Shown piece by piece: positions 13,311-34,681 of a stretch of DNA of 64,000 bases. Within the stretch, counting starts at the first letter, position 1; the number at the start of each line of letters is the position of its first letter. The stretch is from contig VGES01000007.1 of assembly GCA_016869765.1 (NCBI GenBank), forward strand, positions 13,708 to 77,707. Direction: 5' to 3'. Source of the stretch: Alphaproteobacteria bacterium. GTDB taxonomy: Bacteria > Pseudomonadota > Alphaproteobacteria > SHVP01. The notes below the pieces were generated by a model. That model was not told where the DNA came from. It was given only the letters and a program-made list of their open reading frames with translations, and did not search any database. Position numbers and translations under genes: made by a program.

Positions 13311-13361
13311 CTTCGTTGTTGCTTTCCAACACGTCTCAAGTTCGGCACCGAATGGGTCACG

Positions 13362-16286: not shown

Positions 16287-17186
16287 TCAGAGTCGCAGGG
16301 CATTCGAACGATATTCGACAAATACGGAGTGGCGCTCGTGCCCTGGGGAGAATATCCCCCTAGCGTGCCAACCAAAGGTGTTCGCAATCATAAGCGTATT
16401 GGCGTCGCAGCTCAGAGTCACCTTCCTCAGGCCCCACTTCTCGAGATCGACATCGGTGATGCGCGGCGCGCGCTGTCCTATGCCAACGCTGTTCGAATAC
16501 TCGAACAGGAGCCGGCGCGGATGAAGGCGATGGGACTTGGGGACGAAGACAAAGGCAGCGCTATCCGCATCCGTTGGCCGCAGGTACAAATATGCCTTGG
16601 TGATCGAATAGAACGTATCCGAATGCAGGTCACTATTCGTATCTTCGGTATAGGCAGCGGTAGGACCGCCGTCGTGTAACAGGGCGCGCTCAAACCGCGC
16701 CTTGAACATACCGCGACGATACAGCGTTTCCTCTGTTTGGCCCTCGTGGGCCATGACGATTCTCACGAATCGTTCGTCACGCAAGACTGAACGCGTCGTT
16801 TCTGGATAAATACTCTCGTTCCCGCTGATCGTTTCCGAGTGAACAACGGTTCTTACACGATCGAGTAGGGGTAATATTCTTTGTTCCCGCAGCCGCTGTT
16901 GCGCTGCGTCGAATTCTCGCCGAACCAATGCAAGGTCGCGTTCGCTCAGAAAATTGGGGATCGTGCAGTAGCCCTGCTCTATCAATTGACGAGTGGGGGT
17001 CTCTTTCGTTGATCGATCTCGCATGCGACGCACGTGCAAGAGAGTGCGGGCCGCGCAAATTCGCGCCAGTTGAAGGCCTAGGCGGTTCAGCGCCGCAGAT
17101 GGGATCAGCTTGTCGTTGGACAGGATATTTGCCAGTTGACTCATGTCGATATCCGGATCGCGATCAAGACGAAACAGGCGTTCCAA
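16287..17186 (-). CDS. Putative Fe(II)/2-oxoglutarate dioxygenase, PhyH-like; start uncertain
   Basis: GYCTIPNFLSERDL start-like motif and an HSD...H arrangement (LHSDTFYS ... FGWHARG) typical of phytanoyl-CoA-dioxygenase-type folds. Weak. Confidence 0.45.
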   Translation of the reverse strand: MERLFRLDRDPDIDMSQLANILSNDKLIPSAALNRLGLQLARICAARTLLHVRRMRDRSTKETPTRQLIEQGYCTIPNFLSERDLALVRREFDAAQQRLREQRILPLLDRVRTVVHSETISGNESIYPETTRSVLRDERFVRIVMAHEGQTEETLYRRGMFKARFERALLHDGGPTAAYTEDTNSDLHSDTFYSITKAYLYLRPTDADSAAFVFVPKSHRLHPRRLLFEYSNSVGIGQRAPRITDVDLEKWGLRKVTLSCDANTLMIANTFGWHARGIFSPGHERHSVFVEYRSNALRL

Positions 17187-17204
17187 AGCCGACGAATACT
17201 GATC

Positions 17205-17981
17205 TCATTCTCGGGCGATCGAAATAGGTTTCTGTTCCACGTGAGCATTGATCGCAATCCATGCGGGGTTTTGCCGCAGGCATTCGAGGCAGTCCTCCAA
17301 GTTGAACCAGGGCCGCTCCTTGTGCAGAACCAGCAGCATCCGATCGATGAGCTCAAAGTCCGCGGCCGTATCAACGGTCCAACGGTGCCGACTTTGATCC
17401 GATGAATAGGCGACGTTGTGCAGACGAAAGCGGCTTGGCTGGCGCCACACAAAGAGAGTCACATGTTCACGATCCTCGGGATTGCTGGCTTCGGCGTGGG
17501 CCAATTCGAGCACGCTACGCGGCAGAACCTCGGTATCCATCCCCCGGGGATAGGTCGGGATCAACCGATTGCTCACATAGTCGACATCGGCTCGGCGCCC
17601 TAGAAACGCTTCGATGGTCCGATCGATAACGGCAGGGTCGATCAAGGGGCAATCTGAAGTGACGCGAACGACAATATCAGCGTCAGAGTGTCGAGCCGCG
17701 CCAACATAGCGAGCCAAGACATCTTTCTCCGGGCCGCGAAACACCTCTAGCCCCATCGCCCGAGATAGTTCGACAATCGGCAAGTCGTCATCCTTGTCCG
17801 TCGTAGCGACGACGACGGCATCAGCAAGTCGAGAGCGCGCTATACGTTCCAAGTGATGGCCGAGAAGCGACTTTCCCGCCGAGACCTTCATCACCTTTCC
17901 CGGCAATCGGGTCGAGCCCACTCGAGCCTGGGTAACGATGACGACTCTCGATCCGGAACGTTCGTTCATCCCATTTTTCAA
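17205..17981 (-). CDS. CMP-sugar cytidylyltransferase, PseF/SpsF-like (third cytidylyltransferase)
   Basis: VVIVTQARVGSTRLPGKVMK is the PseF/SpsF/KdsB-type motif (ARxGSxRLPGK). Confidence 0.7.
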   Translation of the reverse strand: MKNGMNERSGSRVVIVTQARVGSTRLPGKVMKVSAGKSLLGHHLERIARSRLADAVVVATTDKDDDLPIVELSRAMGLEVFRGPEKDVLARYVGAARHSDADIVVRVTSDCPLIDPAVIDRTIEAFLGRRADVDYVSNRLIPTYPRGMDTEVLPRSVLELAHAEASNPEDREHVTLFVWRQPSRFRLHNVAYSSDQSRHRWTVDTAADFELIDRMLLVLHKERPWFNLEDCLECLRQNPAWIAINAHVEQKPISIARE

Positions 17982-18140
17982 TTCATCTAGGTCTTACCAA
18001 AACCGAGCCATCTACTCGGGGCATCGCAAAGCCGCTGCACGGTCCGCATCCGGTTATCGTGGAGTCTTTGTACTGTCGCCAGCGATCCCCGATGGCGATC
18101 GCCTGCCAACCCTTTTCGAAAAGGCTCCGAGACGCGAGTC

Positions 18141-18860
18141 TCAGGCGCGGTCGGTCCATGATGGGCTTCTTGCGTGACGCCAACCGACCAGGTCGAACCA
18201 AACCGTAATTGCAAGAGCTCTCAAGATTCGTGCATTGGCACGCAAGCGACGGCCAAAGCGTGGGGCTCCCGAACGCTGAGATACCGGAACGTTGATAAGG
18301 CGATGACGTGCACCGGCGGCCAAGCTCGCCGACGCAAGTTCCGTGCCGATCAGACGGTAGCGGTCGAAGCAACCGTGTTTTCGGTATAACGCCGTGTTGT
18401 ATCCCTTGAGGCCGCAGAGAATATCGGGAACGCCATGACGCCATCGCGCGTACTGATTGAACAAGTACTCGGCGGTCCGCGCCGCTGCAGGTCTTTCGCC
18501 AATCACGAGATCGGCCTCGCCGCTAAGCAAGATAGCCAGTAGACTGGGCACAGCCGTTGGTTGATGCTGTCCATCGGCATCGAACGTGACGACGATGTCA
18601 GCACCTAGGGCCTCGGCTTTCTCGAAGCCCGACTGCAGGGCGGCGTCATAGCCGCGGTTACTGGGGTGGCGTACCACCAAGGCACCAGCCGACTCCGCGA
18701 GCGCGCCTGTCGCATCGGTAGAACCATCATCAACTACGATCGGTCGACCAAATGCAATGAGCGAACCTACGACCCGACCAATCGTCTCCGCTTCGTTGAG
18801 TGCCGGTATAACGATGACGCTATTCAACGTCGCGCAACAATACGCAACTGCCCTCGGCAA
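18141..18860 (-). CDS. Glycosyltransferase family 2 (short, DPM1/GtrB-catalytic-domain-like)
   Basis: VIVIPALNEAETIGRVV...VVDDGSTDAT (DxD region). The ORF-track start at 18860 is a TTG. An alternative TTG lies at 18827. Confidence 0.75.
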   Translation of the reverse strand: MPRAVAYCCATLNSVIVIPALNEAETIGRVVGSLIAFGRPIVVDDGSTDATGALAESAGALVVRHPSNRGYDAALQSGFEKAEALGADIVVTFDADGQHQPTAVPSLLAILLSGEADLVIGERPAAARTAEYLFNQYARWRHGVPDILCGLKGYNTALYRKHGCFDRYRLIGTELASASLAAGARHRLINVPVSQRSGAPRFGRRLRANARILRALAITVWFDLVGWRHARSPSWTDRA

Positions 18861-19890
18861 CGCTGCGTCGCGTCACTCTGCCGATTAGCTCACCGATGCG
18901 GTAAGGCGGCAAAGCGTCTCTTGGGCATGGGCGAAGTACGATCAGGTCGCGTTCGACTATCCGATGGCCCTCCGGCAGTGGACGACGGGCTCGAATAGCT
19001 CGGCGCTGTAGGACGACAGTTTCCCGTTCATTCTCCATGACTCTTTTTTCGTCGGTGCCCAGGGCTTGTTCGAGTTCGCGTGTGCGGTCGACCATTTCTT
19101 GCCATGACCTAGGATCCATCGAGAAGGCGTGGTCCGGCCCTTTTCTGGAGAGATCATCTGTGAAGTGCTTCTCGATCGCTCTCGCGCCCAACGCGACCGC
19201 ACCGAGGACCGTGGCATGACCAGGAGTATGGTCTGAGAGGCCGAGGACCAAGCCTTCGAACTCGCGGGCGTAAGTCTTTAGGACGTTGAGGGCGACGTGC
19301 CGAAAATTCTCCAGCGCGGCCGTGTAGTTCGTGTTGCATTGCATTAGGACGATGTCTTGTGTCCATCGGCGCACGATCTCGACCGCGGACCGGACTTCAT
19401 GCATTTCTGATGCGCCTGTCGCAAGCAATATCGGTTTTCCGGTTCGAGCCATCGCTTCAATGCTGGCATGCCAAGTGATGTCACCGGATCCAACCTTCCA
19501 CGCACACACATGCTTTGAAAGGTCATCGAGGAGGTCGAGGTCGTAAGGCGCGGTAAAATAGTCGATTCCTGCATCATCGCACGTTTCCTTGAGTATCGGG
19601 CTCCAATCCTGCGGTATTGATGCAGCGCGATAGACCTCCTCGACGGACTTTTCCCATTTGGCTTGGTGGGACTGTTGCTCTCCGAGATCTCGGAACCCCT
19701 TCCCCGAGACGATCGTCTCAGCGCGAAAATTCTGAAACTTTGCGGCATTGGCACCCGCGCTTGCGCAAAGGCGGATCAAATCCTTGGCGCGTTCGATGTC
19801 TCCGTCATGGTTCGCAGCAATGTCGGCGATGAAATAGGTGGGCGAAGTGTCACCAACCTCATGACGACCTATTCGAATCGATGCGGCCAT
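18820..19890 (-). CDS. NeuB-family nonulosonate synthase #3 (PseI/LegI/NeuB-like, with SAF domain)
   Basis: IGRHEVGDTSPTYFIADIAANHDGDIERAKDLIRLCASAGANAAKFQ. C-terminal SAF-like GHRIVERDLIVLRP. Confidence 0.8.
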   Translation of the reverse strand: MAASIRIGRHEVGDTSPTYFIADIAANHDGDIERAKDLIRLCASAGANAAKFQNFRAETIVSGKGFRDLGEQQSHQAKWEKSVEEVYRAASIPQDWSPILKETCDDAGIDYFTAPYDLDLLDDLSKHVCAWKVGSGDITWHASIEAMARTGKPILLATGASEMHEVRSAVEIVRRWTQDIVLMQCNTNYTAALENFRHVALNVLKTYAREFEGLVLGLSDHTPGHATVLGAVALGARAIEKHFTDDLSRKGPDHAFSMDPRSWQEMVDRTRELEQALGTDEKRVMENERETVVLQRRAIRARRPLPEGHRIVERDLIVLRPCPRDALPPYRIGELIGRVTRRSVAEGSCVLLRDVE

Positions 19891-19930: not shown

Positions 19931-20722
19931 TTACTTCGACGTCGCAAGATACTGGCGCACAAACTGATTGCCCGGAGCGGTCGGATCCGGGTTGCGGTCC
20001 ATGGACATGGAAGCCCGAGCGCTGCGAAGATAAGGGACGTGATTGAGTTCGCTCCAACGCCCCACCAATGTCCAGCGTATGGTGGAACTGGAATTGGGCA
20101 CAGATCCATGAAAAAGGAACGGATGAAACACCAAGGCATCGCCCGCCGCCAAGTCCAATGTGACAACTCTCTCTTCGTCGATCAATGAAAGGGGAAGGGA
20201 CCAGTAGTTTTGTGGTTCCTCGACCCGATGGTGGACGTGCAGCCCCGATCGGTGTGAACCCGGGACGACGCGGAGTCCTCCACGATTTCCCCCGGTATCG
20301 GTTAGCGGAATCCAGATGTTTAGATTCATCAACGACATCAACTCAAGTTCCTGGTGCATAGGGAGGAGACGGTCGTCGCTGGGGTCGTCGATTCGCACCT
20401 GCATGTACCCAGCAAGAAGTGGCGTGCCATAGAGCTTTCGGCCAAATGCGAGAACGGTTTCGTTGGATAGCGCATGTCGTACGCCATGGAGCATGCCGAG
20501 GACGTTGTAGCAGTACGCTTTGATCTCCGGGTGCCTCGTCTTTAGCTGCAAGTACTTCGCATCGACTCCGGCGTGGTCAGTTATCCTTTCCCCGATGGCA
20601 CTCAAAGAGGTGTCAAACACTCTTTCGATCTGATCGAAGATGTCGGAAATCGAGTCGTTGGACAAAAGGCCCCGAAAGACCGCATACCCGTTGCGATCGT
20701 AGTCGTCATCGATTTGGGTCAT
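19931..20722 (-). CDS. Phytanoyl-CoA dioxygenase (PhyH) family Fe(II)/2OG oxygenase
   Basis: NIWIPLTD (metal HxD-equivalent region) and C-terminal FHPFLFHGSVPNSSSTIRWTLVGRW, typical of PhyH-family hydroxylases. Confidence 0.6.
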   Translation of the reverse strand: MTQIDDDYDRNGYAVFRGLLSNDSISDIFDQIERVFDTSLSAIGERITDHAGVDAKYLQLKTRHPEIKAYCYNVLGMLHGVRHALSNETVLAFGRKLYGTPLLAGYMQVRIDDPSDDRLLPMHQELELMSLMNLNIWIPLTDTGGNRGGLRVVPGSHRSGLHVHHRVEEPQNYWSLPLSLIDEERVVTLDLAAGDALVFHPFLFHGSVPNSSSTIRWTLVGRWSELNHVPYLRSARASMSMDRNPDPTAPGNQFVRQYLATSK

Positions 20723-20731
20723 TTGATCTTT

Positions 20732-21478
20732 TCAACCACCATCCGGTTGCGTGGGTTGAGGGGACATTTTGTTGTTCCTCGTCGCGGTGATTTCCCAGCT
20801 AGCACGTACAGTGCCTCCGAGCGCATCGCGCCTCAGGACGTGCTGAAGGTCGACGATGGCGAAATATTCGCCGAACAAAGCCTCGATGTCGCGCGGCGAC
20901 ACGAAGAACATCGTCCCTTCCTCGTCGTATGGTGTGCCACGAAAGTGGTTGTAGCTACCGTCTCCGAGGGGGTGGCCGCCGGAAACATGGGTGTCAGCGG
21001 TGCTAAACATGTGGCTATAGAGGAGGCCGCCTCTATCCAACACCCTCGCAATTTCTTCGATCGCCCTTTCGACAATGGAGCGGGCGTTGTGTGAGACCGC
21101 GGCCCGGTCGATGACAGCTTGGAACGAGCTAGTCGGCCAAGGAAGGGCATCTAGCCTCCCGACCCGAAAATCGGCGTCGTAGCCTTCTCCGGCCAGAAGC
21201 TTCCGTGCATGATCGATTGCCGTTGGCGAGCCGTCGATACCGTGCGCTGAGAATCCTTCACGTGCTAGAAACCAAACGGTATTGCCAGCACCGCAACCTA
21301 CATCGAGGATGCGAATGGATCGCCGCTCGACCCAATTTGCATCGGCAAAGCGTCTCATGACTGCGGCGACCACCCCCTGATAGGGGTAACGATTGAGCTG
21401 TCGTCCACGGCCATAAATCTGGCGCTCCCAGTGGTCGGACTGGGCGGCGGAAGGGCTATTCCCTTGGTCTCCGGTCAC
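20732..21478 (-). CDS. Class I SAM-dependent methyltransferase
   Basis: Motif I ILDVGCGAGNTVWFLAREG. Confidence 0.7.
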   Translation of the reverse strand: MTGDQGNSPSAAQSDHWERQIYGRGRQLNRYPYQGVVAAVMRRFADANWVERRSIRILDVGCGAGNTVWFLAREGFSAHGIDGSPTAIDHARKLLAGEGYDADFRVGRLDALPWPTSSFQAVIDRAAVSHNARSIVERAIEEIARVLDRGGLLYSHMFSTADTHVSGGHPLGDGSYNHFRGTPYDEEGTMFFVSPRDIEALFGEYFAIVDLQHVLRRDALGGTVRASWEITATRNNKMSPQPTQPDGG

Positions 21479-21487
21479 CGCCCCGCC

Positions 21488-22612
21488 TCAAGGATTCGCT
21501 GGTCGCGATAACCAGTGGGCCGGGTGATCGGTTGGGTGTACCGAGTTCGCGCGCCCAGAGAGCTCTTTCTTAATGCGGTCGTCAATCATCAATCCCGGCC
21601 GCCTGGTCCATGGCACCAGTCGGTTAGCGTCTTCTTGGTAGTCGAGAAATGCGTTCAGTGCTTGCTCAGAGCTCATCGACAATTCGTAGCCCTCGGACGT
21701 CATCTCATGCCGGCAGATCCATTCTATTGCCCCCAAAGCCTCGACAGGCAGCACGCTTCTCCACGTTTGCGAAGCCGGACTCTGCCCTGGGTGACTTGAG
21801 TTTCCCCGCCATCGTCCGCCTTGTTCTGTCATAAATTCTGATGGCCCGGTTGACCAGAACTCGTCGCCGATCTCGAGAAATGAGGACACGCGCGCCAGAG
21901 TTTTCGGGGTGTCTGCCACCATTTCTTCGAAGGAAAGCAGCAACACTCGATCGGCGAATCGAGCCTTCAGTTCGCGCCTATACTGTGCGGCCGTAGTCCA
22001 CATACGACCTACGAAAAGAAGTGGATGGAGGCCATCCGGGTTCCGGGATGCTCCAATCGGGTAGTTCCTCGAGGCCAGAACACCGCGTGGATCGCGAATA
22101 ATGTGAACAATACGAAGCGTCCGATCGGTGGCTACCAGTGGCGCCAACAGTTCTTCGACATAGACCTCTTTGAGTCCAACCCACGATCCCGCCGGCGCAC
22201 GGCGATATTCGGCCAATATCCCAAACAACGAATCAAGCAGTTGTGACGGGGTTGAACCGGTCAGTCGCTTTGTCACCAGTTCATCGAAAGTGACCGGCAG
22301 AGCATCTTCCTCGCCTGCCGCTCGCAGTCGTTGCTGAAGCTCGATGAGTTCGTTGGCGATCTTCGCGACGTCATATCGACCGATTGCAAGCTCTGATGGC
22401 CAATGGTCATCTCGGTCACGCAGGAAAGAAATGCCCATTGGGTCCGAGGGGTTTGACGCCAGAAATCCGCCATCATGCAGCAAGCGCCTGAGGCCCAGGA
22501 AGAGGGGAAGGGCGGGTTGATGAACGACAGAACACAGCGGATGCCGGTCGATCGTCTTCTGCAAAATCGTCGTACCCGAGCGGTAGGTTCCGCAAAGGAC
22601 TAGATGCTTCAT
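21488..22612 (-). CDS. Sulfotransferase-domain protein (PAPS-dependent)
   Basis: 5-prime PSB loop LVLCGTYRSGTTIL and 3-prime PB-like IIRDPRGVLASR. Confidence 0.65.
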   Translation of the reverse strand: MKHLVLCGTYRSGTTILQKTIDRHPLCSVVHQPALPLFLGLRRLLHDGGFLASNPSDPMGISFLRDRDDHWPSELAIGRYDVAKIANELIELQQRLRAAGEEDALPVTFDELVTKRLTGSTPSQLLDSLFGILAEYRRAPAGSWVGLKEVYVEELLAPLVATDRTLRIVHIIRDPRGVLASRNYPIGASRNPDGLHPLLFVGRMWTTAAQYRRELKARFADRVLLLSFEEMVADTPKTLARVSSFLEIGDEFWSTGPSEFMTEQGGRWRGNSSHPGQSPASQTWRSVLPVEALGAIEWICRHEMTSEGYELSMSSEQALNAFLDYQEDANRLVPWTRRPGLMIDDRIKKELSGRANSVHPTDHPAHWLSRPANP

Positions 22613-22710
22613 GCGGCGTTCAATTTCACCGCCGACAACCTGTGCGTTCCACTGTTGGTGTCAGGCGTCACGTCCTGTTTCAACCAGACCGGCGCTGTTT
22701 GACGGTGCAC

Positions 22711-23826
22711 CTAGCTCTTTCCGAGATATCCATCCGGCAGCGCACCAGCGAGGGCGACCGGCATAGCTTGTCGATCGGGCTTGCGGCTTGCGCGCACGAG
22801 CACTTCTTTCGAATAAATCTGACACTTTCGGCAAGTGTCGGGGAGCGGTTTCGTTACACCGAAGGTTGCAATGGCTTGTCGCAAGGAGCGATATTTCGAG
22901 TTGTTCCATATCTCAAGCAGATCGCTGGTACGGATGTTGCCCATCCTCAGTTCGCCGGTGATGTCATAGCAGCAAGCAGTAACTTCCCCATTGGCCCGGA
23001 CAACGATTTCATTGAACGGCATTGTGCACAATCCGAGGCCTGCCTTGGTGGCATGGCCCTCAGCGGTCGAGATCTCAAGCCCCTGTTGAGTTGCACTTTC
23101 AGCGGTCAGCCCAGGCCAGCGCATGGCATGCCCGGAATGAATCGTGCCAGGACCGAAATCATCGGCAAGAAATTTCGGTACCTGCGGTCGTGAGCCAAGT
23201 TCCGCCCGGGATGGGATTCGAATGTTGTGGATCAAGATACGAGTCTTGTCGAGAATCTTTCTCGCGCGAAGGACGTTCTCTCGAACCTTGAAATAGTTGC
23301 TTCTGATTCGGATGGCATCGTTTTCCAGCGGAGTGTCGCCATCGATCGAAACAATGATGGTGTCGACTTCGGACTCCGAGAGCTTTCTGCATGCTTGTTC
23401 GGTCAACAACATGCCGTTGGTGTGAAAATCTGTTCTTTCGACGCTCGTCTCTTTCTTTGTGCGGGAGAGCATCTCGGCAAGGCGAGGGTTCAGAAGAGGT
23501 TCTCCACTGAAGTAGAACGCGGCGTGCTTGATGCTCTTGATTGGGGTGATCTGGCCAATAATCCTATCGAAGAGCGTTGCATCCATGATGTCCTTATTGG
23601 GCGTTCCGGCGACAGCAGCCGCACCGGTTGGGCAATGGGTGCAACGAAGGTTGCACGCACTTGCTGGCTCGATGCGAATTCGTCTAGGGGAGGCAAGTCG
23701 GTATCTACGAAGGATTGCCGGTATCCCCCATTCTATGGCGTAAGGCCAAAGTCGATGGACCTCGCGTAACGGACGTTCGACCACGCCGGGGAGCAAAGAA
23801 ACGAATAACTTCCTGAGCTTTTTCAT
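22711..23826 (-). CDS. Radical SAM enzyme with SPASM/twitch-type C-terminal Cys cluster (anSME/peptide-maturase-like family)
   Basis: IRIEPASACNLRCTHCPTG (C-x3-C-x2-C) and C-terminal Cys pairs ...GEVTACCYD...CRKCQIY. Confidence 0.75.
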   Translation of the reverse strand: MKKLRKLFVSLLPGVVERPLREVHRLWPYAIEWGIPAILRRYRLASPRRIRIEPASACNLRCTHCPTGAAAVAGTPNKDIMDATLFDRIIGQITPIKSIKHAAFYFSGEPLLNPRLAEMLSRTKKETSVERTDFHTNGMLLTEQACRKLSESEVDTIIVSIDGDTPLENDAIRIRSNYFKVRENVLRARKILDKTRILIHNIRIPSRAELGSRPQVPKFLADDFGPGTIHSGHAMRWPGLTAESATQQGLEISTAEGHATKAGLGLCTMPFNEIVVRANGEVTACCYDITGELRMGNIRTSDLLEIWNNSKYRSLRQAIATFGVTKPLPDTCRKCQIYSKEVLVRASRKPDRQAMPVALAGALPDGYLGKS

Positions 23827-23989: not shown

Positions 23990-25369
23990 TCACCCGTTCT
24001 TCCCTCGCGAACCCCTGATCACTGAACTGAAGTGGGCAACGTACTCGTCTTGAGCCGTTGGCGTTAAGGGTGAAACGTATTTCTCGAATAGCGCTCGGTA
24101 AGCGGAGTAGTAGGGCTCCGGGAGTCTTCTCGTGTCTAGTCCGGTCTGCATCAAGGTCGTCAGCTCTTCCGGAGATCGTGCCACCAATAGCCCTTCGAAC
24201 GCGTCACGATATAGGATGCGCTGATCATAGTACTCGGTTCGGACTTCGTCGAAGTGGGGGACAATGACGTAGCGCCGCGCAACGCCGGCTTCGATCAGCG
24301 TTGTGGAGTTTATCCCGACCACGACATCGCTTCTGAGGATCAGATTTTGAGCGTCCGGTTTGCTCGAAATTACGAGATTTGGAATCGTCTTTGGGTCGAT
24401 GGATGCGGCGGTCAATGCCAAACGAAAGTTCCGACGCCATTCATCTTCTGCATCTGATTTCGGTTTGATCACAACTTCGATCCCGGAGTTGTTCATAGCG
24501 AAGCGGGTGATTGTCACGGCGACCCGATCGAAATAGTCGCGCGCCATATCCGGGGGAAACGTGCCGCCTGTCCCACCGACAAGGTTGAACGGAAAGAACG
24601 TCAGTCGTCGATGGGGTGCTTCATTGTCCGGTAGTGCCGCAATTCGACGGAGAAAACGATCCATCCGGATAGCGCCCAGCGTGACCACACGATCCGCAGG
24701 CGCTACACCACATTCGATGAGGTGTCGTCTCGCGATCTCATTGTGGACGACAATCGAATCCCCCTCGAACGAAAACTTGAGCAGCGAGAGCCGCTCTCGG
24801 ATTCTTTTGAGCAATGCCGGGGACGCGTAGAGATTCTCACGATGCAAAACGACGTATGGAACCCTAAGTTCCTGGGACACAGCACCCCAGTCGAAGTCTA
24901 ACCCAAAATGGATGTGCGGACTGATGACGCAGTCGGCTCCTATGCGCCGATACAAGATCGGCAAGAAAGCGGCGAGAAAGGAACGATACCGGGATTTGGA
25001 GCGTAGCTGCTTCGAGTCCCCGTCCGGGTTGACGATCTGGCGCCAAGACGTTCGGCGGTCGTAGAAGCAATAGACGAGACGGCGAAGCCATTCTGCCGAC
25101 AATTCCAGGACACGCAACCTGCCATCGGCCGCAAGAATTTCTGGGTCGCCACGAAAACTCTCGCCCAACAGGGCGAGCACCGTTGGACGGCCCTGCTGAT
25201 GCCGCCAGCGACTAACCTGGCGTCCGTCAGGCGTACGCTCTTTTGTAGCACGTGCGAAGACGATGGCCAGCAACCTATAGGCACGTGCAGCAACGAGAAG
25301 CTTGACGACTGCCGTCTTGCCACGATGGCGGCTCGGCCAGTACCGGGTAATCTCACGTCTGATCAACAC
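23990..25369 (-). CDS. Hypothetical large cytoplasmic protein, possibly GT-B-like transferase
   Basis: 459-aa ORF, coding-like. It sits between the FemAB-like and radical SAM genes. No confident family assignment from sequence. Confidence 0.3.
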   Translation of the reverse strand: MLIRREITRYWPSRHRGKTAVVKLLVAARAYRLLAIVFARATKERTPDGRQVSRWRHQQGRPTVLALLGESFRGDPEILAADGRLRVLELSAEWLRRLVYCFYDRRTSWRQIVNPDGDSKQLRSKSRYRSFLAAFLPILYRRIGADCVISPHIHFGLDFDWGAVSQELRVPYVVLHRENLYASPALLKRIRERLSLLKFSFEGDSIVVHNEIARRHLIECGVAPADRVVTLGAIRMDRFLRRIAALPDNEAPHRRLTFFPFNLVGGTGGTFPPDMARDYFDRVAVTITRFAMNNSGIEVVIKPKSDAEDEWRRNFRLALTAASIDPKTIPNLVISSKPDAQNLILRSDVVVGINSTTLIEAGVARRYVIVPHFDEVRTEYYDQRILYRDAFEGLLVARSPEELTTLMQTGLDTRRLPEPYYSAYRALFEKYVSPLTPTAQDEYVAHFSSVIRGSRGKNG

Positions 25370-25420: not shown

Positions 25421-26389
25421 TCATAGGTGAATGTCAAAGAACAGTCGAGGCGATGCACCAAGACTGTGCTTGAAGTCGGCCCGCGCGGGCGAGTTCGCAC
25501 CGTTGAAGTCCGCCCACTGGAGTTTCTTGTCGAAGACCCGATTGACAAAAGCGACGCACGCCATAGTCGCAGCCCCCGCGAGGCGACCGTCATCGATGGA
25601 CGCATTAGCCACAGCGTGGCCGCTACGAGAGTCGTACAGCGCAAGCTGCGCTGCGACCGGCTCACGATCTCGATCGGTGACAAATAGTATTTCCCCGATA
25701 CTTTCGGTCACGGCCGCCGTCGCCATCGCTCGGAGAGCCCGCCGGTGGTCAGCGGAAACCAGAGTTCCCTGGCGCTCGAACATCGCCGAGTACAGCCTTA
25801 AGAGAAGATCGACATCATTTCCGGAGCTTACCGTGAGACCTTCCTGTTGCGCCCTTCTCAGGTCTTGCCGACGGTCCTTTCGCCCAGCTTTGAGAACCGC
25901 CTCTACGCTGCGCAACTCTGAGCAATCGAGTAGGGCCGTATAGCGAGGCGTGATGGTACACCGGCGTTGGCCTGGTCTCCCGTAGTTGAACCAATCGAAG
26001 CCCCTGATATCCGTAATCGAATGGTGAAGGCCAAAGTGCAGTTGGCCATATTCACGGGTCAGCGTTTCGAGCAACAGGTTGGTCAGGGTCAATAGCCAAA
26101 ACGATTTGCGGGGAATCGGTAGCCCGTCAACATCGGGACTAAACATCACGCCCTGGTAGTAGGCGAACGGCATTCCCGGCAGCACATTCCCCGCTCGACG
26201 CAGTACCGCCACACCGGCCTTGATCTCACCATTTCGGGCGACGAACCATATGTCGGATACGAGATCGTGATACTTAAGAAGCCGGCCATCTTGGAACACC
26301 GTTCCCTGGAGAGAACTCGTTACAAGCAAGCTCCAATCGTCGCCTTCTGAAGAGCCGCGAAAAACCTCGAGGCCGGGGACTGGCAGCAT
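25421..26389 (-). CDS. FemAB-like / GNAT-fold acyl(aminoacyl)transferase, putative
   Basis: Size (about 320 aa) and composition resemble FemAB-family (BioF2-like) transferases. Weak motif-level support only. Confidence 0.4.
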   Translation of the reverse strand: MLPVPGLEVFRGSSEGDDWSLLVTSSLQGTVFQDGRLLKYHDLVSDIWFVARNGEIKAGVAVLRRAGNVLPGMPFAYYQGVMFSPDVDGLPIPRKSFWLLTLTNLLLETLTREYGQLHFGLHHSITDIRGFDWFNYGRPGQRRCTITPRYTALLDCSELRSVEAVLKAGRKDRRQDLRRAQQEGLTVSSGNDVDLLLRLYSAMFERQGTLVSADHRRALRAMATAAVTESIGEILFVTDRDREPVAAQLALYDSRSGHAVANASIDDGRLAGAATMACVAFVNRVFDKKLQWADFNGANSPARADFKHSLGASPRLFFDIHL

Positions 26390-26446: not shown

Positions 26447-28069
26447 TCATCGGATGTCCCCCGCTGGTATCAAGTAGCGCCGGGCATATTCGTCTGAACG
26501 ACGCATCGGGGCTTCCATAGCTGCGTTCGCCAGATCGGCTGGGTCGAACACGATTTCAAGTCCATTGGTCAATCTCGCTTTGACCCATGCGCAACGCGAA
26601 TCGAGGGATACGCGCTCCGATGCATTCCAGCATTGCCCTTCTATTTCGAGCACCACGATTGGCGTTTCGGTCATGAGGGCCTCACCGAAAGTGGTTGTCG
26701 AAACATAGCTGAAGATCAGCAGGTCACTTTCATCGATGATGTGAATGAATGGCTGCCGAACCACGCGCTGGCATGAGGATCTCATGATGGCATCAACCTC
26801 GTTTGGTGCCTCGGGGTGAGCCTTGTAGATGACGTCGTAACCGTTAGACATAAGAACCTTCGCCATTCTCAATTCCACATCGAGGCGTGGACTGAAGAAC
26901 AGAGCCACATCTGTCGGGGCCCGTCGAAACGAGTGGTTGTAGCCAACAATCATCGCGGTTTTGCCCGTGGTCTTCTTCCTCGTCGTCGCAGAGCGAGAAC
27001 GCAAATTATTCCATCGATTGGGGATCACCGAGAAAGTGATCTCGCGAACCTTGGGCACCACGGCGATTTCGGCGCGATCAATCGCCGAGTGCATCGCAGC
27101 TGTCGATTCACACAGATACTCGGTGCAGACTGCGTAGTCGTTGTAACAGATGATGTCGTTGACGATGTGGCCTGCGTTGTGGCCATGCTGTGTACCAATT
27201 ACAGGAACACCCCTTCGCTTGTTCGCTAGTGCCAAGACACGATAGAAGGGTGGGGCTCCGGCTCCCAAGAGAACTCCAGCCGGGCGAACGGTTTCTTGGA
27301 TACCGGCGGTCAATCCAGCAAGGGTTTGCAGGCGCTTGATCCAGGCGTATTTGAGGTCGTCGATCGATATCTCTCCGCCCAGGTCGCCACAGGCACGGAC
27401 GATCTTGGCGGCGCAAGTATCGATTGCGTCGAGCAGCGACGGCGGCAACGGCCGATCGTCGTGGTCCATCCAAAGGGTGGCAAAATCCAAATTATCAACG
27501 AACCAGCCTTGTCGAACTGAGTAAGCTTCTAGCATTGGAGAAAGGTGCCCGACCACTAGCGCGGTTGGTCCAGTCTGGCCAATGAGTCTGCGAAGCAGGG
27601 GGACTCCTGGGTTGGCGCCAATGCGCCGCTTGATCCTGCGGACGCGAGAACGTATCGACGATCCGCGGGCGAGCGCCACCCGATGTTGAATCGCGAGATG
27701 CCCCCAATCAGGCCGATAGTAGGTGGCCGCGTGCGGCCCGACGTCTAAGGTGAGGCCGTATTCTTCGGCCTTGCGGGCGGTCGCCGACGAGTGGCCGATC
27801 TGGATTAAGACATCCAGTATGCGCACATCAGCCAAGAACAAGTCTTGGTCGCTGCCCGCGAGACCGTCAACAGCCTCCTTGAAGGCTTGGTAGACCGTGC
27901 CGCAAAAACCTAGGAAGTCGTCTTCGGGAATAGGCCAAGGGGGAGGTCGAGCCGTCGAACCAAAGCCGAGCCTCTGGTAGCTGACAACATCAGTCGCGAG
28001 AGTCCGACCGACCGTAGTGGCATCGAGCGTCCTATGTCTCGTCGGTGGTGAGAACTCGCGGCTTCTCAT
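26447..28069 (-). CDS. Large GT-B-like protein with K-x-HP motif (putative nonulosonate/Kdo transferase)
   Basis: Start reassigned to the internal ATG at 28069, which overlaps the upstream stop (ATGA). The ORF-track N-terminal 88 aa are Arg-rich junk. Contains VIYKAHPEAPNE ... FSYVSTTTFGEALMTETPIVVLE, the same K-x-HP architecture as the 3654-5258 protein. Confidence 0.35.
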   Translation of the reverse strand: MRSREFSPPTRHRTLDATTVGRTLATDVVSYQRLGFGSTARPPPWPIPEDDFLGFCGTVYQAFKEAVDGLAGSDQDLFLADVRILDVLIQIGHSSATARKAEEYGLTLDVGPHAATYYRPDWGHLAIQHRVALARGSSIRSRVRRIKRRIGANPGVPLLRRLIGQTGPTALVVGHLSPMLEAYSVRQGWFVDNLDFATLWMDHDDRPLPPSLLDAIDTCAAKIVRACGDLGGEISIDDLKYAWIKRLQTLAGLTAGIQETVRPAGVLLGAGAPPFYRVLALANKRRGVPVIGTQHGHNAGHIVNDIICYNDYAVCTEYLCESTAAMHSAIDRAEIAVVPKVREITFSVIPNRWNNLRSRSATTRKKTTGKTAMIVGYNHSFRRAPTDVALFFSPRLDVELRMAKVLMSNGYDVIYKAHPEAPNEVDAIMRSSCQRVVRQPFIHIIDESDLLIFSYVSTTTFGEALMTETPIVVLEIEGQCWNASERVSLDSRCAWVKARLTNGLEIVFDPADLANAAMEAPMRRSDEYARRYLIPAGDIR

Positions 28070-29388
28070 CTTTCCGTATGGCCATCGCTGGGTGCCAACA
28101 AACCAGCGGAAACGAGTTTTCGCACAGCGGGGAGGAGACTCGGCAGGGGCCGCGCAATCAAATCGGCGATCGCCAAGAGGTCGATCTCGCCGTCCGAATA
28201 GGCCAGCAGATTGAGCATCACGCGGACTTGTTCGCTTGCCTGTGCACCGCCAAGACTCGGATATAGCCCGTAGCGCCCGAGCTGCGGCTCTCCGACGGTG
28301 GTGGCGCGATAGGTTTGATTTGCCTCGAGGCACTCGATCGCGTGCTTAACGATCCGAAAACCGCCTTCGAGTCCAAGAGGGGTGACCAGATCGAGGTTGT
28401 CGAGTGAGGTGTGGTACTCGGGATAGGTGCCGTACTTCGAGCGCATCAATGAGCAGACCGGAAGGTCGACGGTCGGGAAGCCGTATTGTCGCTCATCGCT
28501 GGCTCGATCGAGGTAGTCATAGGTGTTAAAGCTACCGACCAAATGTTTCAGGGAGTGGCGGGCGGCGCGGTCAGCGAGCGTATTGCCTCGTCGCGAAGCC
28601 AAATACGAATATGCCCGCTCATCGCCAATACAGGTGAGGACGAAGCCTGCTGCGACCTGTCTCTTCAGTTCGTCAAGGCTCCGGCTCAAGAACGCGAGTG
28701 TGCCTATCGTCTCCGGCACAAAAACGAGCCGGTATCCGAAACCCCGGCGCTGAAGCGACATCAACCATTTCGCGATAAACGTCGCGACAATGGGCCCCGA
28801 AAGCTCGTTGTTTGCCATCGACGGGTGGCAAACGTAGGTCGACAAAAGAATCTCTTTGTCTCGAGTGCCTGGGAGCCTGAATTCGCCGTAGGTCAGGCTG
28901 CCGCTTGTAAGCGAGGCGTCTATACAGACCTCGTAGTCGCCGGGCAGGAGGGCATCGCGCTGCCGTTGGGAAAGGCAAAACCCCCAATTCCGCGAATAGT
29001 ACGAGGTGACGTATGGAATTGCGTCTGGCAACTCGGGCTTGGAGTGCAAGTGTCGCTGAAGTTCGTCGAGGGAGAGGCGGCGGCGAACGGGAACCGAGTA
29101 GCTAACGACATGGAGGTTGTTGGTTGCGGTGTCGACAATCTTTCGGCCGTCCGGCCCGGAGATCCAAGCCTCCCTGAGATTCCACTCGTCGGGAATCGTC
29201 CAGTCGAAGACCTTCGTCCCACTCGGGACCTCGGTAATCTCCAGCGTCGGGAGGTGTTCCCTTAGGATAGAGAGTGTTTGCCGCACACCATCTCCCGTGA
29301 TCGAGCGGCAGATTGGAAAGAGGCGCCGCGCGAGCGCGTGCATCTGCGATCCGAGGGCTTCATTTTTCGAACTCGATTGACCGGTCAT
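28066..29388 (-). CDS. Aminopeptidase-like-domain protein (DUF4910-type), glycan-cluster associated
   Basis: N-terminal SITGDGVRQTLSILREHLPTLEITEVPSGTKVFDWTIPDEW resembles DUF4910/aminopeptidase-like proteins common in polysaccharide loci. Confidence 0.4.
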   Translation of the reverse strand: MTGQSSSKNEALGSQMHALARRLFPICRSITGDGVRQTLSILREHLPTLEITEVPSGTKVFDWTIPDEWNLREAWISGPDGRKIVDTATNNLHVVSYSVPVRRRLSLDELQRHLHSKPELPDAIPYVTSYYSRNWGFCLSQRQRDALLPGDYEVCIDASLTSGSLTYGEFRLPGTRDKEILLSTYVCHPSMANNELSGPIVATFIAKWLMSLQRRGFGYRLVFVPETIGTLAFLSRSLDELKRQVAAGFVLTCIGDERAYSYLASRRGNTLADRAARHSLKHLVGSFNTYDYLDRASDERQYGFPTVDLPVCSLMRSKYGTYPEYHTSLDNLDLVTPLGLEGGFRIVKHAIECLEANQTYRATTVGEPQLGRYGLYPSLGGAQASEQVRVMLNLLAYSDGEIDLLAIADLIARPLPSLLPAVRKLVSAGLLAPSDGHTER

Positions 29389-30293
29389 CGCGGATCGTCA
29401 GACAGCCTAAGCAGGTCGGAGTCGTTCCAGGCACGCCAATCATCGCAGAACGAGTCGAGGCAACGGTCCAAGGTCGGAAGGCGCATCCCGAAAGCGTGCT
29501 CGAAGAACTCTACGTTCATCGCCATGCCGCGAGGTCTGTAGGTCTTGAGCTGGGCGTCGCCAACGCTGGCAACCACGCAAGTCTCGGTCGAAAGGCCAAG
29601 GCGCGCGGCAAGTCTCATGGCGAATTCCGCCTTACTCACCCCCGGGCCGTGATAGCCCACGTTGAACGTCCCCCGCTGCCACCGCTCGACGACTCTTGCC
29701 AGAATCCCCGGCAAGAAGCCCGCATAGATCGGGTTGAAGAAGACATCACCGAAAAGGCGCAGAGGCTGTTTCGACCGAAACGATCGAGTGAGCCATCCCG
29801 CAAACCCCTCCTTCTTTTCCGTACCCAAACAAAAAAAATTGAGTCGTAGGGCAGCGGCGTTGGCTGACAGCGCGATGTCTTCTCCCCAAAGCTTGGTCAA
29901 CGCATACACGTTCGTCGGTCGGACATCGGCCTCTCGATTGGCACCGGCACCGTCATAGACGTGGTCGCTCGACACATAGATGATTTTGGCGTCACCGGCG
30001 GCCGATACGAGGTTTCGTGTAGCGTCGACGTTTAGTCGGTAGGCGCGAGTAGGATCTGCCTCGCAAGCATCGACATCGGCCAATGCGGCCAAATGAAGGA
30101 TGACATCGGGCCGACAGCGCTTCACGAGATCGTTGACCGAACCTTTTTCCGTCAGGTCGACGGCGAGGTACGATTCACCGGAGGCCGGGGCACTGCTGGC
30201 TGCATGCCGGCAGACGAAGTATGTTTCCAAGTCTTCCGCAATAGCCCGGCCCAACAGCCCGCTGGACCCGGTGACTAGGAGTGTTGGTCTCAA
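29385..30293 (-). CDS. RmlD-like NAD(P)H-dependent sugar-nucleotide 4-ketoreductase (dTDP-4-dehydrorhamnose reductase family; WbvR-like)
   Basis: LLVTGSSGLLGRAI Rossmann motif and SSDHVYDG (compare RmlD STDYVFDG). A 4-nt overlap with the next gene. Confidence 0.7.
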   Translation of the reverse strand: MRPTLLVTGSSGLLGRAIAEDLETYFVCRHAASSAPASGESYLAVDLTEKGSVNDLVKRCRPDVILHLAALADVDACEADPTRAYRLNVDATRNLVSAAGDAKIIYVSSDHVYDGAGANREADVRPTNVYALTKLWGEDIALSANAAALRLNFFCLGTEKKEGFAGWLTRSFRSKQPLRLFGDVFFNPIYAGFLPGILARVVERWQRGTFNVGYHGPGVSKAEFAMRLAARLGLSTETCVVASVGDAQLKTYRPRGMAMNVEFFEHAFGMRLPTLDRCLDSFCDDWRAWNDSDLLRLSDDPR

Positions 30294-30306: not shown

Positions 30307-31287
30307 CTACGAACCGGTGTCGAGGATTGACAGCAGCTGTTGGTTGGTCAGCCATTGATCATTGGTCTCACTAGAGTAGCAGAATTCGGGAGCAACCAGT
30401 TTGGCGCTGGCCGGGGCAACGCGGTCCCGTGACCAAAGCGCAAACGCCGGCTCGATGACGAAGCGATCCCCCATATCGTAGGTGTAACGACTATCGTCCT
30501 CGGTGATCATCACTTCGTGCAACTTCTCGCCGGGACGAATCCCGATGGTCTTGAGAGGTAACGATGGCGCGATCGCCCGGGCAACGTCGATCACCTTCAT
30601 GCTTGGGATTTTGGGGACGAAAATCTCACCACCTTGCATTTCGCGAACACAGCGTACGACAAAGTCAACGCCTTGTTGCAAGGTGAGCCAAAATCGAGTC
30701 ATGCGCGGATCGGTGATAGGGAGGTGATCGGTGCCCCGAGCGATCAACTGACGGAAGAACGGAATGACGCTACCGCGTGAACCTATGACATTTCCGTACC
30801 GTACGACGGAAAACCTGGTTCCAACCCGACCACTCAGATTGTTGGCCGCAATGAATATCTTGTCGGAAGCAAGTTTGCTGGCGCCGTAGAGATTGATCGG
30901 ATTGGCCGCCTTGTCAGTCGATAGGGCAAGCACCCTCTGGACCCGGTTCCTGATCGCGGCTCGTACGACGTTCTCGGCACCGAAGACGTTCGTATGAATA
31001 CACTCGAAAGGGTTGTATTCGGCGGTTGGTACTTGTTTGAGTGCCGCAGCATGAACAACCAGATCGACTTCCCGCATCGCCAGCTCCAGGCGCTCCGCAT
31101 CTCGAACGTCGCCGATGAAATATCGGATCCGGCGGTCGTCGCGAAGCTCCGGATCCTGCTGCATCTCGTACTGCTTGGCTTCATCACGCGAAAACACGGC
31201 AATACGTGCCGGTGCATGCTGTCGGGTCAACGTTCGGACAAACGAACGTCCGAACGAGCCTGTCGCGCCGGTGACAAGGATGGACAT
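30307..31287 (-). CDS. UDP-GlcNAc 4,6-dehydratase, inverting (PseB/FlaA1/CapE/WbvB family)
   Basis: Start reassigned to the internal ATG at 31287 (verified cat at 31285-31287). MSILVTGATGSFGRSFV...IAVFSRDEAKQ is the hallmark of this family. 327 aa fits. Confidence 0.8.
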   Translation of the reverse strand: MSILVTGATGSFGRSFVRTLTRQHAPARIAVFSRDEAKQYEMQQDPELRDDRRIRYFIGDVRDAERLELAMREVDLVVHAAALKQVPTAEYNPFECIHTNVFGAENVVRAAIRNRVQRVLALSTDKAANPINLYGASKLASDKIFIAANNLSGRVGTRFSVVRYGNVIGSRGSVIPFFRQLIARGTDHLPITDPRMTRFWLTLQQGVDFVVRCVREMQGGEIFVPKIPSMKVIDVARAIAPSLPLKTIGIRPGEKLHEVMITEDDSRYTYDMGDRFVIEPAFALWSRDRVAPASAKLVAPEFCYSSETNDQWLTNQQLLSILDTGS

Positions 31288-31710
31288 CCCATCAAGCGAC
31301 TGGATCACGATGATCTCTGTCTGTTTTTCTGAAGGCCAATCTGCGGCCAACGCAATCAAGCTCCGCCATTCGGGTGACCTGACGGGCGCCGCGTTTCTCG
31401 TAGACCGATAAGGGACTGGCCCTTCCGCGTCAAGATCGACGGGAATTCGCGGACTTGGGCATCCGGGCTGGTGAGCTGGTGGGGCGCGCCAAACTGCTGG
31501 GCGTGATCGTTCGGGTGGATCGGCGTAACCGAGTGGATGGGGCTCGGTGAACGCCGCGGAAGTCTTGGGCGCGCGACCCAACGGATACACCTCGCGGTCG
31601 GCCCATTGGCCGGCAACGGAAGGTTCTGTTCGAGGGCCTGCGCCAATGCGGAGAATAGGCTATGGTCCGCGCACTCCCGACCCGAACGGAAGAAGGCGAC
31701 TAGGCTCGGC

Positions 31711-34676: not shown

Positions 34677-34681
34677 GCTGC

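Follow-up and report, generated by a model that had tools for sequence, protein, structure and literature searches.

Nonulosonic acids (NulOs), the group to which the sialic, pseudaminic and legionaminic acids and their relatives belong, are surface determinants in immune evasion, phage recognition and flagellar function. Loci for their synthesis are well known to carry variable tailoring genes, many NulO stereoisomers exist for which the epimerases are not known and, to our knowledge, the chemical diversity of these sugars is far greater than the set of enzymes known to produce them. Among radical S-adenosylmethionine (SAM) enzymes the described system that most closely resembles the case considered here is BtrN, which carries out the two-electron oxidation of an aminocyclitol and has an auxiliary Fe-S cluster with four Cys ligands; a single auxiliary cluster is what defines the Twitch domain (PMC9012708). 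Here we describe four consecutive genes for a PhyH-family dioxygenase, a methyltransferase, a sulfotransferase and a radical SAM enzyme in a 64,000-nucleotide stretch of DNA from an uncultured alphaproteobacterium (contig VGES01000007.1, positions 13,708 to 77,707; hereafter the window, with positions numbered from its first letter). A sequence-only reading had taken these genes for one tailoring cassette inside a NulO operon and the radical SAM enzyme for a SPASM-type peptide or protein maturase, resembling the anaerobic sulfatase-maturating enzymes (anSME), whose place in a sugar pathway was left unexplained. Judged from its sequence and predicted structure the enzyme is instead a BtrN-like Twitch enzyme and not a maturase of the SPASM/anSME type, and it belongs to a family that occurs inside the NulO clusters of many phyla, carries no curated family name and appears to be undescribed.

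The four genes lie within a minus-strand gene run of ∼1.2-31.6 kb. The run holds three NeuB-family synthases and three CTP_transf_3 cytidylyltransferases (Pfam), PseB and NeuC proteins that each exceed the NCBIfam equivalog cut-off, an ABC exporter of the fused kind, a PhyH-like protein besides that of the four and a radical SAM enzyme with a B12-binding domain. The three hallmarks of a NulO locus, a NeuB-family synthase, a cytidine monophosphate (CMP)-NulO cytidylyltransferase and an early nucleotide-sugar enzyme, are therefore all present, and the flanking rfbB, rfbA, epimerase and waaA genes indicate a neighborhood of the lipopolysaccharide (LPS) or capsule type. The earlier placement of the four domain families inside a NulO locus is borne out by Pfam matches above the gathering scores and by the NeuB, CMP-transferase, PseB and NeuC context, and the spacing is as tight as had been noted, with intergenic gaps of 9, 9 and 98 nt. 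Neither Rfam matches nor intergenic terminator-like sites were found around the four genes, in 16-32.5 kb of the window. Near-identical contigs are present in one JGI metagenome and two Logan assemblies. On balance we think it probable that the four genes encode accessory enzymes for one among three NulO pathways in a ∼31 kb surface-glycan locus of the LPS or capsule type.

The nature of the radical SAM enzyme can be read from its cysteines. The N-terminal CX3CX2C motif is present (C58, C62 and C65 of the cluster), followed by auxiliary cysteines C267, C285(/C286), C332 and C335, and in an alignment of 22 homologues (A1) residues C58, C62, C65, C267, C285, C286 and C332 are invariant, C335 is nearly so and no other Cys is conserved. 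A full SPASM domain is defined by the seven- or eight-Cys motif CX9-15GX4C ... CX2CX5CX3C ... C that ligates two auxiliary clusters, AuxI and AuxII. The CX2CX5CX3C block and any Cys beyond C335 are absent from the enzyme, so that the five conserved C-terminal cysteines leave room for a single auxiliary cluster only, as in a Twitch domain. That Pfam nevertheless reports SPASM follows from the fact that the Pfam SPASM hidden Markov model covers Twitch domains too. The octapeptide CNLRCTHC, likened previously to anSME, is a generic CX3CX2C radical SAM motif. Loss of the cysteines of both the second and the third Fe-S cluster had been named as the sign that would tell against a SPASM enzyme; those of the third cluster are indeed missing, while those of one auxiliary cluster are retained.

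Database comparisons lead to the same assignment. None of the radical SAM families of NCBIfam reached its cut-off, the anSME equivalog TIGR03942 scoring 53.1 bits against a cut-off of 349.45, and on this score and the Cys count we rejected anSME membership. When all PDB sequences were searched with phmmer the best match was BtrN (E 1.1e-16), spanning both the core and the C-terminal domain, with anSME at 1.3e-6. In the phmmer alignment with BtrN (4m7s) C267, C285, C332 and C335 pair with the Cys of '...msC', 'lpCfed' and 'dlCknC'; anSME in the same comparison continues with the CX5CX3C...C ligands for its second auxiliary cluster. An AlphaFold2 model (predicted local distance difference test score, pLDDT, of 87) was compared with the PDB using Foldseek, and ranks 1 and 2 were again BtrN (4m7t; E 4.6e-15, TM 0.70 on target), followed by BlsE, CteB, DesII and anSME. 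Gene calls in the JGI and Logan contigs that we inspected, including L001 (8756-9631) and L082 (9027-9902), begin the gene at M81 (291 aa) and so remove the CX3CX2C motif; because the N-terminal 80 residues are conserved in homologues, the 371-aa open reading frame (ORF) is the real radical SAM gene.

It is very improbable, in light of these data, that the protein is a full SPASM, anSME-like maturase that works on a peptide or protein, forming formylglycine, a cross-link in a peptide made by the ribosome and modified after translation (RiPP) or a glycan cross-link, in partnership with the sulfotransferase. Such a role would draw on the Pfam SPASM match and on the anSME and RiPP maturases found among the weaker sequence and fold matches, but the E-value of BtrN is better than that of anSME by ten orders of magnitude, the enzyme has no cysteines for a second auxiliary cluster, the anSME equivalog is far from its threshold and the adjacency of radical SAM and sulfotransferase genes is not conserved. 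The annotated ORFs of the locus include no sulfatase. The search for short peptide ORFs that the sequence-only reading had proposed returned only two unremarkable ones of 24-33 aa in the gaps flanking the radical SAM gene, with no Cys-, Ser- or Gly-rich peptide ORF in those gaps, and with no precursor-like ORF adjoining the gene the RiPP or protein-maturase interpretation was rejected. The maturase reading as first proposed is largely excluded by these data. The surprise of a peptide-type SPASM enzyme in a sugar pathway thus dissolves, and a more specific and testable point takes its place. There is also a lesson for annotation, in that a match to 'SPASM' does not equal 'peptide maturase' unless the cysteines have been counted.

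The radical SAM subfamily is small: a search of 1.84 billion proteins gave 79 cluster representatives at E <= 1e-30. The same module as in the window surrounds all three metagenomic orthologues of 46-47% identity: on two of the three contigs the order is PseB-like, radical SAM, RmlD-like, NeuB, glycosyltransferase family 2 (GT2) and CTP_transf_3, and on the third the same five core genes are found with the radical SAM gene a few genes later. In order to place more distant relatives all locus proteins were compared by tblastn with 80 GTDB loci that encode them, counting loci of at least 12 kb and scoring a NulO association where a NeuB, CMP-transferase or PseB gene lay within 10 kb. NulO genes accompany 19 of the 22 loci whose relatives are 29-37% identical to the window enzyme, as against 2 of 26 for relatives below 29% identity, which serve as an internal control. 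The 29-37% loci span cyanobacteria, Nitrospirota, Planctomycetota, Leptospirales, SAR324, Geobacter, Sulfurimonas and Patescibacteria. Clustering of neighbors gave NeuB, PseG-like, PseC, PseF and PseB proteins, the 'Pse-associated methylase' and the set WbuX, HisH-like and HisF-like as the commonest families, with HisF-like the tightest neighbor (10 of 20 HisF-like genes at most 300 nt away; GTDB loci L010-L039, L060). A BtrN-like enzyme with such neighbors is not anomalous in a sugar pathway. Our literature search found no paper linking radical SAM enzymes with nonulosonic acid synthesis, those that pair radical SAM with pseudaminic appearing unrelated from their titles and abstracts. The Twitch family is a concrete candidate behind unexplained NulO stereoisomers or keto intermediates.

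What sugar the surrounding module might produce can be approached through the enzymes that it has and those that it lacks. The canonical pseudaminic pathway is marked by PseC, PseH and PseG. In tblastn searches with families from related loci no homologues of DegT/PseC aminotransferases, PseG, WbuX, HisH/HisF or PIG-L were found in the 64-kb window, and Pfam scans of the locus ORFs, which included no query aimed at PseH, gave no PseH-type GNAT, the only two Acetyltransf_6 proteins being FemAB-like. The places of the missing enzymes are occupied by an RmlD-like reductase and a short GT2 protein. The former scores 129 bits with the NCBIfam rmlD model, under the cut-off of 224, and accompanies PseB, NeuB and GT2 in other loci; the latter is a constant companion of the NeuB_A-type synthase, at a conserved position in the other loci compared. 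NeuB_A itself scores under both the NeuB and the PseI equivalog cut-offs. Since the window encodes no aminotransferase, a fusaminic-acid-type 3,5,9-trideoxy NulO is the probable product. The core enzymes would act in the order PseB, RmlD-like 4-reductase, short GT2, NeuB and CMP-transferase: starting from UDP-GlcNAc, the PseB product would be reduced at C4 to a UDP-6-deoxy-L-N-acetylhexosamine, for example that of L-6dAltNAc, the short GT2 may replace PseG as the UDP-sugar hydrolase, and release and condensation with phosphoenolpyruvate would yield a 5-acetamido-3,5,9-trideoxy (7-hydroxy) NulO. As far as the encoded proteins allow one to predict, the module probably makes a NulO of this type that is then oxidized or epimerized, hydroxylated, methylated and possibly sulfated. 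Fusaminic acid, a 3,5,9-trideoxy sugar, and L-6dAltNAc are reported together in the O-antigen of Fusobacterium nucleatum 25586 (PMC13014188, citing Vinogradov 2017). The literature searched held no paper on fusaminic acid genetics.

We favor, with moderate confidence, a BtrN-type oxidation by the radical SAM enzyme at a sugar carbinol carbon of a pathway intermediate, with the PhyH enzyme, methyltransferase and sulfotransferase decorating the NulO, its N-acyl group or the glycan. The folds, catalytic and cofactor motifs, Cys count and genomic associations are results of the analysis; substrates, regiochemistry and the order of steps we infer. Cleavage of SAM at the CX3CX2C cluster would generate a 5'-deoxyadenosyl radical that takes H from a carbinol carbon in a NulO or nucleotide-sugar intermediate, the second electron would pass to the one auxiliary [4Fe-4S] cluster to leave a ketone, and a neighboring short-chain dehydrogenase/reductase (SDR), or the second Cys of the CC pair, could complete a net epimerization. 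The dioxygenase would add OH, the methyltransferase CH3 and the sulfotransferase SO3, onto the NulO, an N-acyl substituent or the finished glycan.

Radical-mediated epimerization had been suggested in the sequence-only reading and is still a live option. In one version the enzyme would be a redox-neutral epimerase of the NeoN type, with C286 returning H on the opposite face to give a new NulO stereoisomer, epimeric for instance at C4 or C8. Throughout the family the CC pair is invariant where BtrN has a single Cys, and fusaminic acid is gluco where manno would be expected from 6dAltNAc, both of which would suit such an enzyme. The second Cys might equally serve as a surplus ligand of the cluster, however, and the frequent adjacency of an SDR suits oxidation followed by reduction just as well, and we regard the NeoN-type epimerase as rather unlikely. 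Quite improbable is an enzyme like AprD4 or DesII, a diol dehydratase or deoxygenase, the keto product of which would be reduced by the RmlD-like SDR to an extra-deoxygenated NulO precursor. The order PseB-like, radical SAM, RmlD-like in two loci would fit this chemistry, as would the presence of DesII and BlsE, sugar-acting radical SAM enzymes, among the top fold matches, but BtrN is clearly the closest relative, the AprD4 model of NCBIfam matched the B12 radical SAM enzyme and not the Twitch enzyme, and AprD4 and DesII are without a Twitch domain of this type.

Whether the four genes form a unit can be judged from L093 (Logan SRR23272297), a locus syntenic with the window of which 20 kb of a 98-kb contig are visible. 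Its genes, with identities to the window proteins, run PseB (67%), RmlD (38%), NeuB_B (59%), DUF4910 (60%), methyltransferase (47%) and, adjoining it, sulfotransferase (34%), 540-aa protein (32%), FemAB-like (50%), PhyH (57%), an extra Methyltransf_21, NeuB_A (66%), GT2 (57%), CMP-transferase (54%), second PhyH (47%, in the same position after the CMP-transferase as in the window), ABC (43%), 459-aa protein (43%, in another position), NeuC (69%) and 2-hydroxyacid dehydrogenase (64%). No Twitch radical SAM gene is found in the visible 20 kb, though the sulfotransferase, methyltransferase and PhyH genes are kept, differently arranged. Conversely, where a PseB-like and an RmlD-like gene flank the radical SAM gene, neither a sulfotransferase nor a PhyH gene adjoins it, and among the 80 GTDB loci searched with tblastn homologues of the sulfotransferase, methyltransferase and PhyH genes adjoin the radical SAM gene only in same-organism contigs. 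A conserved four-gene cassette was therefore rejected: the trio exists without the radical SAM gene and radical SAM loci exist without the trio, and since the adjacency of radical SAM and sulfotransferase genes is not conserved, what had been read as one tailoring cassette is better described as an incidental juxtaposition. The evidence leans toward the radical SAM gene belonging with the core module, and the other three genes with the DUF4910, FemAB-like and 540-aa genes in a variable set.

The sulfotransferase is of the type that uses 3'-phosphoadenosine 5'-phosphosulfate (PAPS). An alignment of its subfamily (A2) shows R11-S-G-T-T15 of the 5'-phosphosulfate-binding motif (5'-PSB), R173-D-P-R...S181 of the 3'-phosphate-binding motif (3'-PB, with canonical spacing) and K148 to be invariant, so that the PAPS-binding residues, the loss of which had been named as telling against the assignment, are retained. 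A profile search of the PDB gave the tyrosylprotein sulfotransferase TPST and the CurM sulfotransferase (E 1e-10 to 1e-11), RSGTT aligning with GGVPRSGTTL of TPST, and with an AlphaFold2 model (pLDDT 79.5) every Foldseek match at E <= 0.001 was a PAPS/PAP-fold sulfotransferase-family protein. The position of the catalytic Glu99 of TPST is Q32, or D, in the subfamily; a conserved K148-E149 pair could take over as catalytic base.

Relatives of this enzyme are few: a word-indexed search yielded 8 matches among 5.8 billion sequences. Its nearest homologue, at 39% identity, is encoded directly upstream of a gene for a PseB that is 67% identical to that of the window. A profile scan of metagenomes returned 80 loci. 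Genes for NeuB, PseB or a CMP-transferase repeatedly neighbor the sulfotransferase in these, and in 6 metagenome loci (L104, L105, L112, L117, L125 and L132) DUF4910 immediately adjoins it. The gene order in one locus from an unrelated metagenome, L098, is CMP-transferase, GFO, DegT, PseB, RmlD-like, NeuB (57% identical to NeuB_A), GT2, sulfotransferase, sulfotransferase, MBL, transferase, sulfotransferase and flippase; three sulfotransferase genes thus stand directly after the PseB / RmlD-like / NeuB / GT2 module (7335-13889), which suggests that heavily sulfated NulO-containing glycans occur in the environment. A link between DUF4910 and spsE/spsF carbohydrate clusters was reported in 2014, together with a proposal of acyl or peptide transfer onto an amino sugar (PMC4000134). 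We offer as speculation that DUF4910 prepares an amine for re-substitution, a role that matches its sulfotransferase and formyltransferase neighbors. The literature that we searched contained neither a bacterial NulO sulfotransferase nor a paper on the association of this subfamily with NulO genes, and a study of environmental extracellular polymeric substances (EPS) that measured NulOs and sulfate could not identify sulfotransferases and drew no genetic link (PMC10483923). This rare subfamily, met repeatedly next to the PseB / RmlD-like / NeuB / GT2 module and next to DUF4910, appears to be undescribed as well.

The PhyH protein of the four keeps the facial triad and the 2-oxoglutarate-binding Arg of its family. 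Invariant positions in alignment A3 are H123, H205 and R216; E125, a consensus residue only, is part of an HQE motif that aligns with HQD of PtlH, and this hydroxylase is the best PDB match, sugar-acting EvdO2 matching too. Homologues at 53-57% identity are again within NulO loci. The second PhyH-like protein that had been pointed out beside the CMP-transferase gene is real, its match weak but above threshold, and no significant similarity was found between the two PhyH proteins of the window, which are not paralogues of each other. The methyltransferase reached no specific NCBIfam equivalog and is a generic class I enzyme with a Rossmann-fold domain and a GxGxG motif. The B12-dependent radical SAM enzyme noted earlier at the far end of the gene run also proved to be real, with B12-binding and Radical_SAM domains, although no equivalog model was reached in NCBIfam, so that it is at most a candidate methylase. 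Homologues of it (up to 46%) occur in 13 of the 80 loci, NulO loci that also bear a Twitch radical SAM gene (the L015 copy is at 16631-18097), and further in the P0006 and P0071 loci.

A number of observations weigh against assigning the four genes to a NulO pathway and the radical SAM enzyme to carbinol oxidation. The distant homologues of the latter are tied most closely to the acetamidino-forming trio of WbuX, HisH-like and HisF-like genes, which is absent from the window, so that function may differ among subgroups. Two alphaproteobacterial orthologues at 50-53% identity are outside NulO clusters, one adjoining DUF4910 and formyltransferase genes and the other housekeeping genes, and only 3 of 6 GTDB loci at 38% identity or more have NulO genes; in L090-L092 DUF4910 adjoins formyltransferase and Twitch radical SAM genes. 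From the sequences of the subfamily oxidation, epimerization and dehydration are indistinguishable. An aminotransferase gene might lie in another part of the genome, L098 having a DegT gene beside the same module, and two O2-dependent Fe(II)/2-oxoglutarate dioxygenases with two O2-labile radical SAM enzymes in one co-directional run make an awkward combination. Finally, the nearest solved relatives of the sulfotransferase by sequence and fold, TPST and the CurM/OLS sulfotransferase, act on protein tyrosine or acyl chains.

The last point also bears on a possibility that we consider less likely but take seriously, namely that the sulfotransferase, methyltransferase and PhyH enzyme act off the NulO, on another polysaccharide residue, on an aminoacyl or acyl side chain that the FemAB-like and DUF4910 proteins would attach, or on an export substrate of the ABC transporter that is no glycan. 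The FemAB-like and DUF4910 genes co-vary with the three, DUF4910 has the proposed acyl or peptide transfer role cited above, the solved relatives of the sulfotransferase are not carbohydrate sulfotransferases and a fused ABC exporter is encoded in the operon. Nevertheless, early genes of one NulO module lie on one side of the three and its late genes on the other, and in unrelated metagenomes sulfotransferase homologues stand directly beside NeuB, PseB and CMP-transferase genes.

Table 1. Positions in the window of the four genes, of their neighbors in the NulO module and of the B12 radical SAM gene.
Feature	Position	Strand	Evidence and remarks
PhyH-family Fe(II)/2-oxoglutarate dioxygenase	19931..20722	-	263 aa; Pfam PhyH 87.7 bits, E 1.7e-24; H123-x-E125, H205, R216
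Class I SAM methyltransferase, motif I LDVGCGAGN	20732..21478	-	248 aa; Pfam Methyltransf_25 E 6.5e-19, _11 E 2.5e-16, _31
PAPS-type sulfotransferase, rare subfamily	21488..22612	-	374 aa; Pfam Sulfotransfer_3 44.3 bits, Sulfotransfer_1 39.5 bits
Radical SAM enzyme, BtrN-like Twitch domain	22711..23826	-	371 aa; Pfam Radical_SAM E 9e-17 and SPASM E 4e-16
B12-binding radical SAM enzyme, far end of gene run	1256..2863	-	PF02310 40.3 bits (cut-off 32.1), PF04055 71 bits
Second PhyH-like dioxygenase	16287..17186	-	Pfam PhyH 25.3 bits vs cut-off 22; directly downstream of CMP-transferase
CTP_transf_3 cytidylyltransferase, putative CMP-NulO synthetase	17205..17981	-	Pfam/NCBIfam
Short GT2 protein	18141..18860	-	Pfam Glycos_transf_2; overlaps NeuB_A by 41 nt
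NeuB-family NulO synthase NeuB_A with SAF domain	18820..19890	-	Pfam NeuB 228 bits
459-aa surface-carbohydrate-biosynthesis-like protein	23990..25369	-	Weak BFO_1060/TIGR04396 similarity
FemAB-like GNAT (Acetyltransf_6), possibly aminoacyl or acyl transferase	25421..26389	-	50% orthologue in L093
∼540 aa protein, no Pfam domain	26447..28069	-	Faint LIC12162/TIGR04326 similarity, far under cut-off
DUF4910/DUF2172 metallopeptidase-like (M28-like)	28066..29343	-	Pfam; PDB 3k9t homologue at 7e-111
RmlD-family SDR, putative 4-ketoreductase on PseB product	29385..30293	-	Pfam RmlD_sub_bind
PseB, inverting UDP-GlcNAc 4,6-dehydratase, first enzyme of module	30307..31590	-	NCBIfam TIGR03589 509.9 bits vs cut-off 407.75
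Divergent methyltransferase related to 'pseudaminic acid biosynthesis-associated methylase' family	31537..32379	+	tblastn with TIGR03587-type queries: 39% identity, E 4e-40; 59% orthologue in L093

The features of the module and of the four genes are collected in Table 1. The starts of the longest ORFs overlap or overextend at 26447-28333 / 28066-29388 and at 30307-31590, and both public gene calls and Pfam alignments point to shorter genes, of ∼540 aa in place of the 628-aa ORF (540 aa in public contigs), ∼425 aa for DUF4910 and ∼333 aa for PseB, the true start of PseB being probably ∼31308 (333 aa in the public calls).

Two further NulO modules lie at lower positions of the window. At 5790-7328 (minus strand) a third NeuB homologue (512 aa; 43% homologue in L032) is fused to a C-terminal cupin / D-lyxose-isomerase-like domain and is followed by genes for a Capsule_synth-like protein, a PseF-like cytidylyltransferase and the B12 radical SAM enzyme. 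At 8636-13310 (minus strand) a NeuC/NeuB module of the Neu5Ac type includes a thiamine pyrophosphate (TPP)-dependent enzyme, a D-2-hydroxyacid dehydrogenase and a GFO/IDH/MocA oxidoreductase, an unusual trio; in L093 the genes for NeuC, the 2-hydroxyacid dehydrogenase and the TPP enzyme are consecutive and in the same order, and yet another modification, of the NulO or of an N-acyl group, is suggested. Several ORFs of 350-520 aa without a Pfam or NCBIfam match are found at 33510-35852 and 40675-44053, adjoining genes for GT4 and FemAB-like proteins and for a flavoenzyme resembling OYE/FadH (37887-39935). The GC content rises from ∼55-60% over 1-44 kb, the glycan locus, to ∼61-66% over 44-64 kb, where rfbBA, waaA and a histidine kinase gene are located, and the step near 44000 fits a glycan locus that is a horizontally acquired or fast-evolving island.

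With the sulfotransferase subfamily recurring next to NeuB, PseB and CMP-transferase genes, the idea that bacteria make sulfated sugars of the sialic acid type can be tested directly, which bears on reports of EPS in which sialylation and sulfation co-occur (PMC10483923). One can go further and imagine that the locus produces a sulfated (O- or N-sulfo) 3,5,9-trideoxy NulO, the first bacterial one, that the sulfotransferase represents an unrecognized subfamily of NulO sulfotransferases often working with DUF4910, and that the Twitch enzyme heads a new oxygen-independent family of NulO oxidases or epimerases extending from cyanobacteria to Patescibacteria. Taken as a whole we would give this picture only a small chance of being correct. 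Were it so, DUF4910 and the sulfotransferase could be a deacylase/sulfotransferase pair analogous to eukaryotic NDST, a NulO sulfotransferase subfamily rare in databases would nonetheless be present in many environments, and the Twitch family would yield new NulO stereoisomers.

It is useful, in closing, to set the window enzymes beside the systems that they most resemble. BtrN, the 2-deoxy-scyllo-inosamine dehydrogenase of butirosin (PDB 4M7T), has in common with the radical SAM enzyme the CX3CX2C motif, a Twitch domain with four aligned auxiliary Cys, a carbohydrate-like substrate and a location in a sugar-pathway gene cluster. The two are only ∼20% identical, however, and the window enzyme is ∼100 residues longer, owing to an N-terminal helical extension and an insert between core and Twitch domain, has the CC pair in place of one Cys and is found in a NulO rather than an aminoglycoside context, with no aminotransferase partner in the window. 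The anSME/SPASM maturases (TIGR03942; PDB 4K36-4K39) resemble the window enzyme in the radical SAM core and in the first half of SPASM, whereas the latter enzyme is without the CX2CX5CX3C...C cysteines, scores far below the equivalog and has no peptide or sulfatase partner. The pathway to pseudaminic acid (PseB, C, H, G, I, F) and the window have PseB, a NeuB-family synthase, a CMP-transferase and a gene like that of the Pse-associated methylase in common; in the window PseC, PseG and PseH give way to the RmlD-like reductase and the short GT2, and the synthase falls under the PseI and NeuB cut-offs. For the fusaminic acid and L-6dAltNAc of Fusobacterium nucleatum, PseB action followed by 4-reduction would be a logical route to both. 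The sulfotransferase shares with PAPS enzymes such as TPST and CurM/OLS the 5'-PSB sequence RSGTT, the R-x7-S spacing of the 3'-PB and the fold, but is at most 16% identical to any solved structure and has Q or D at the position of the TPST Glu; with the eukaryotic sialate O-sulfotransferases the analogy is functional only. The PhyH enzyme, which matches PtlH and EvdO2 at low identity, has the HxD/E...H...R residues that bind iron and 2-oxoglutarate, and KdoO would be a functional analogy for the hydroxylation of an ulosonic acid.

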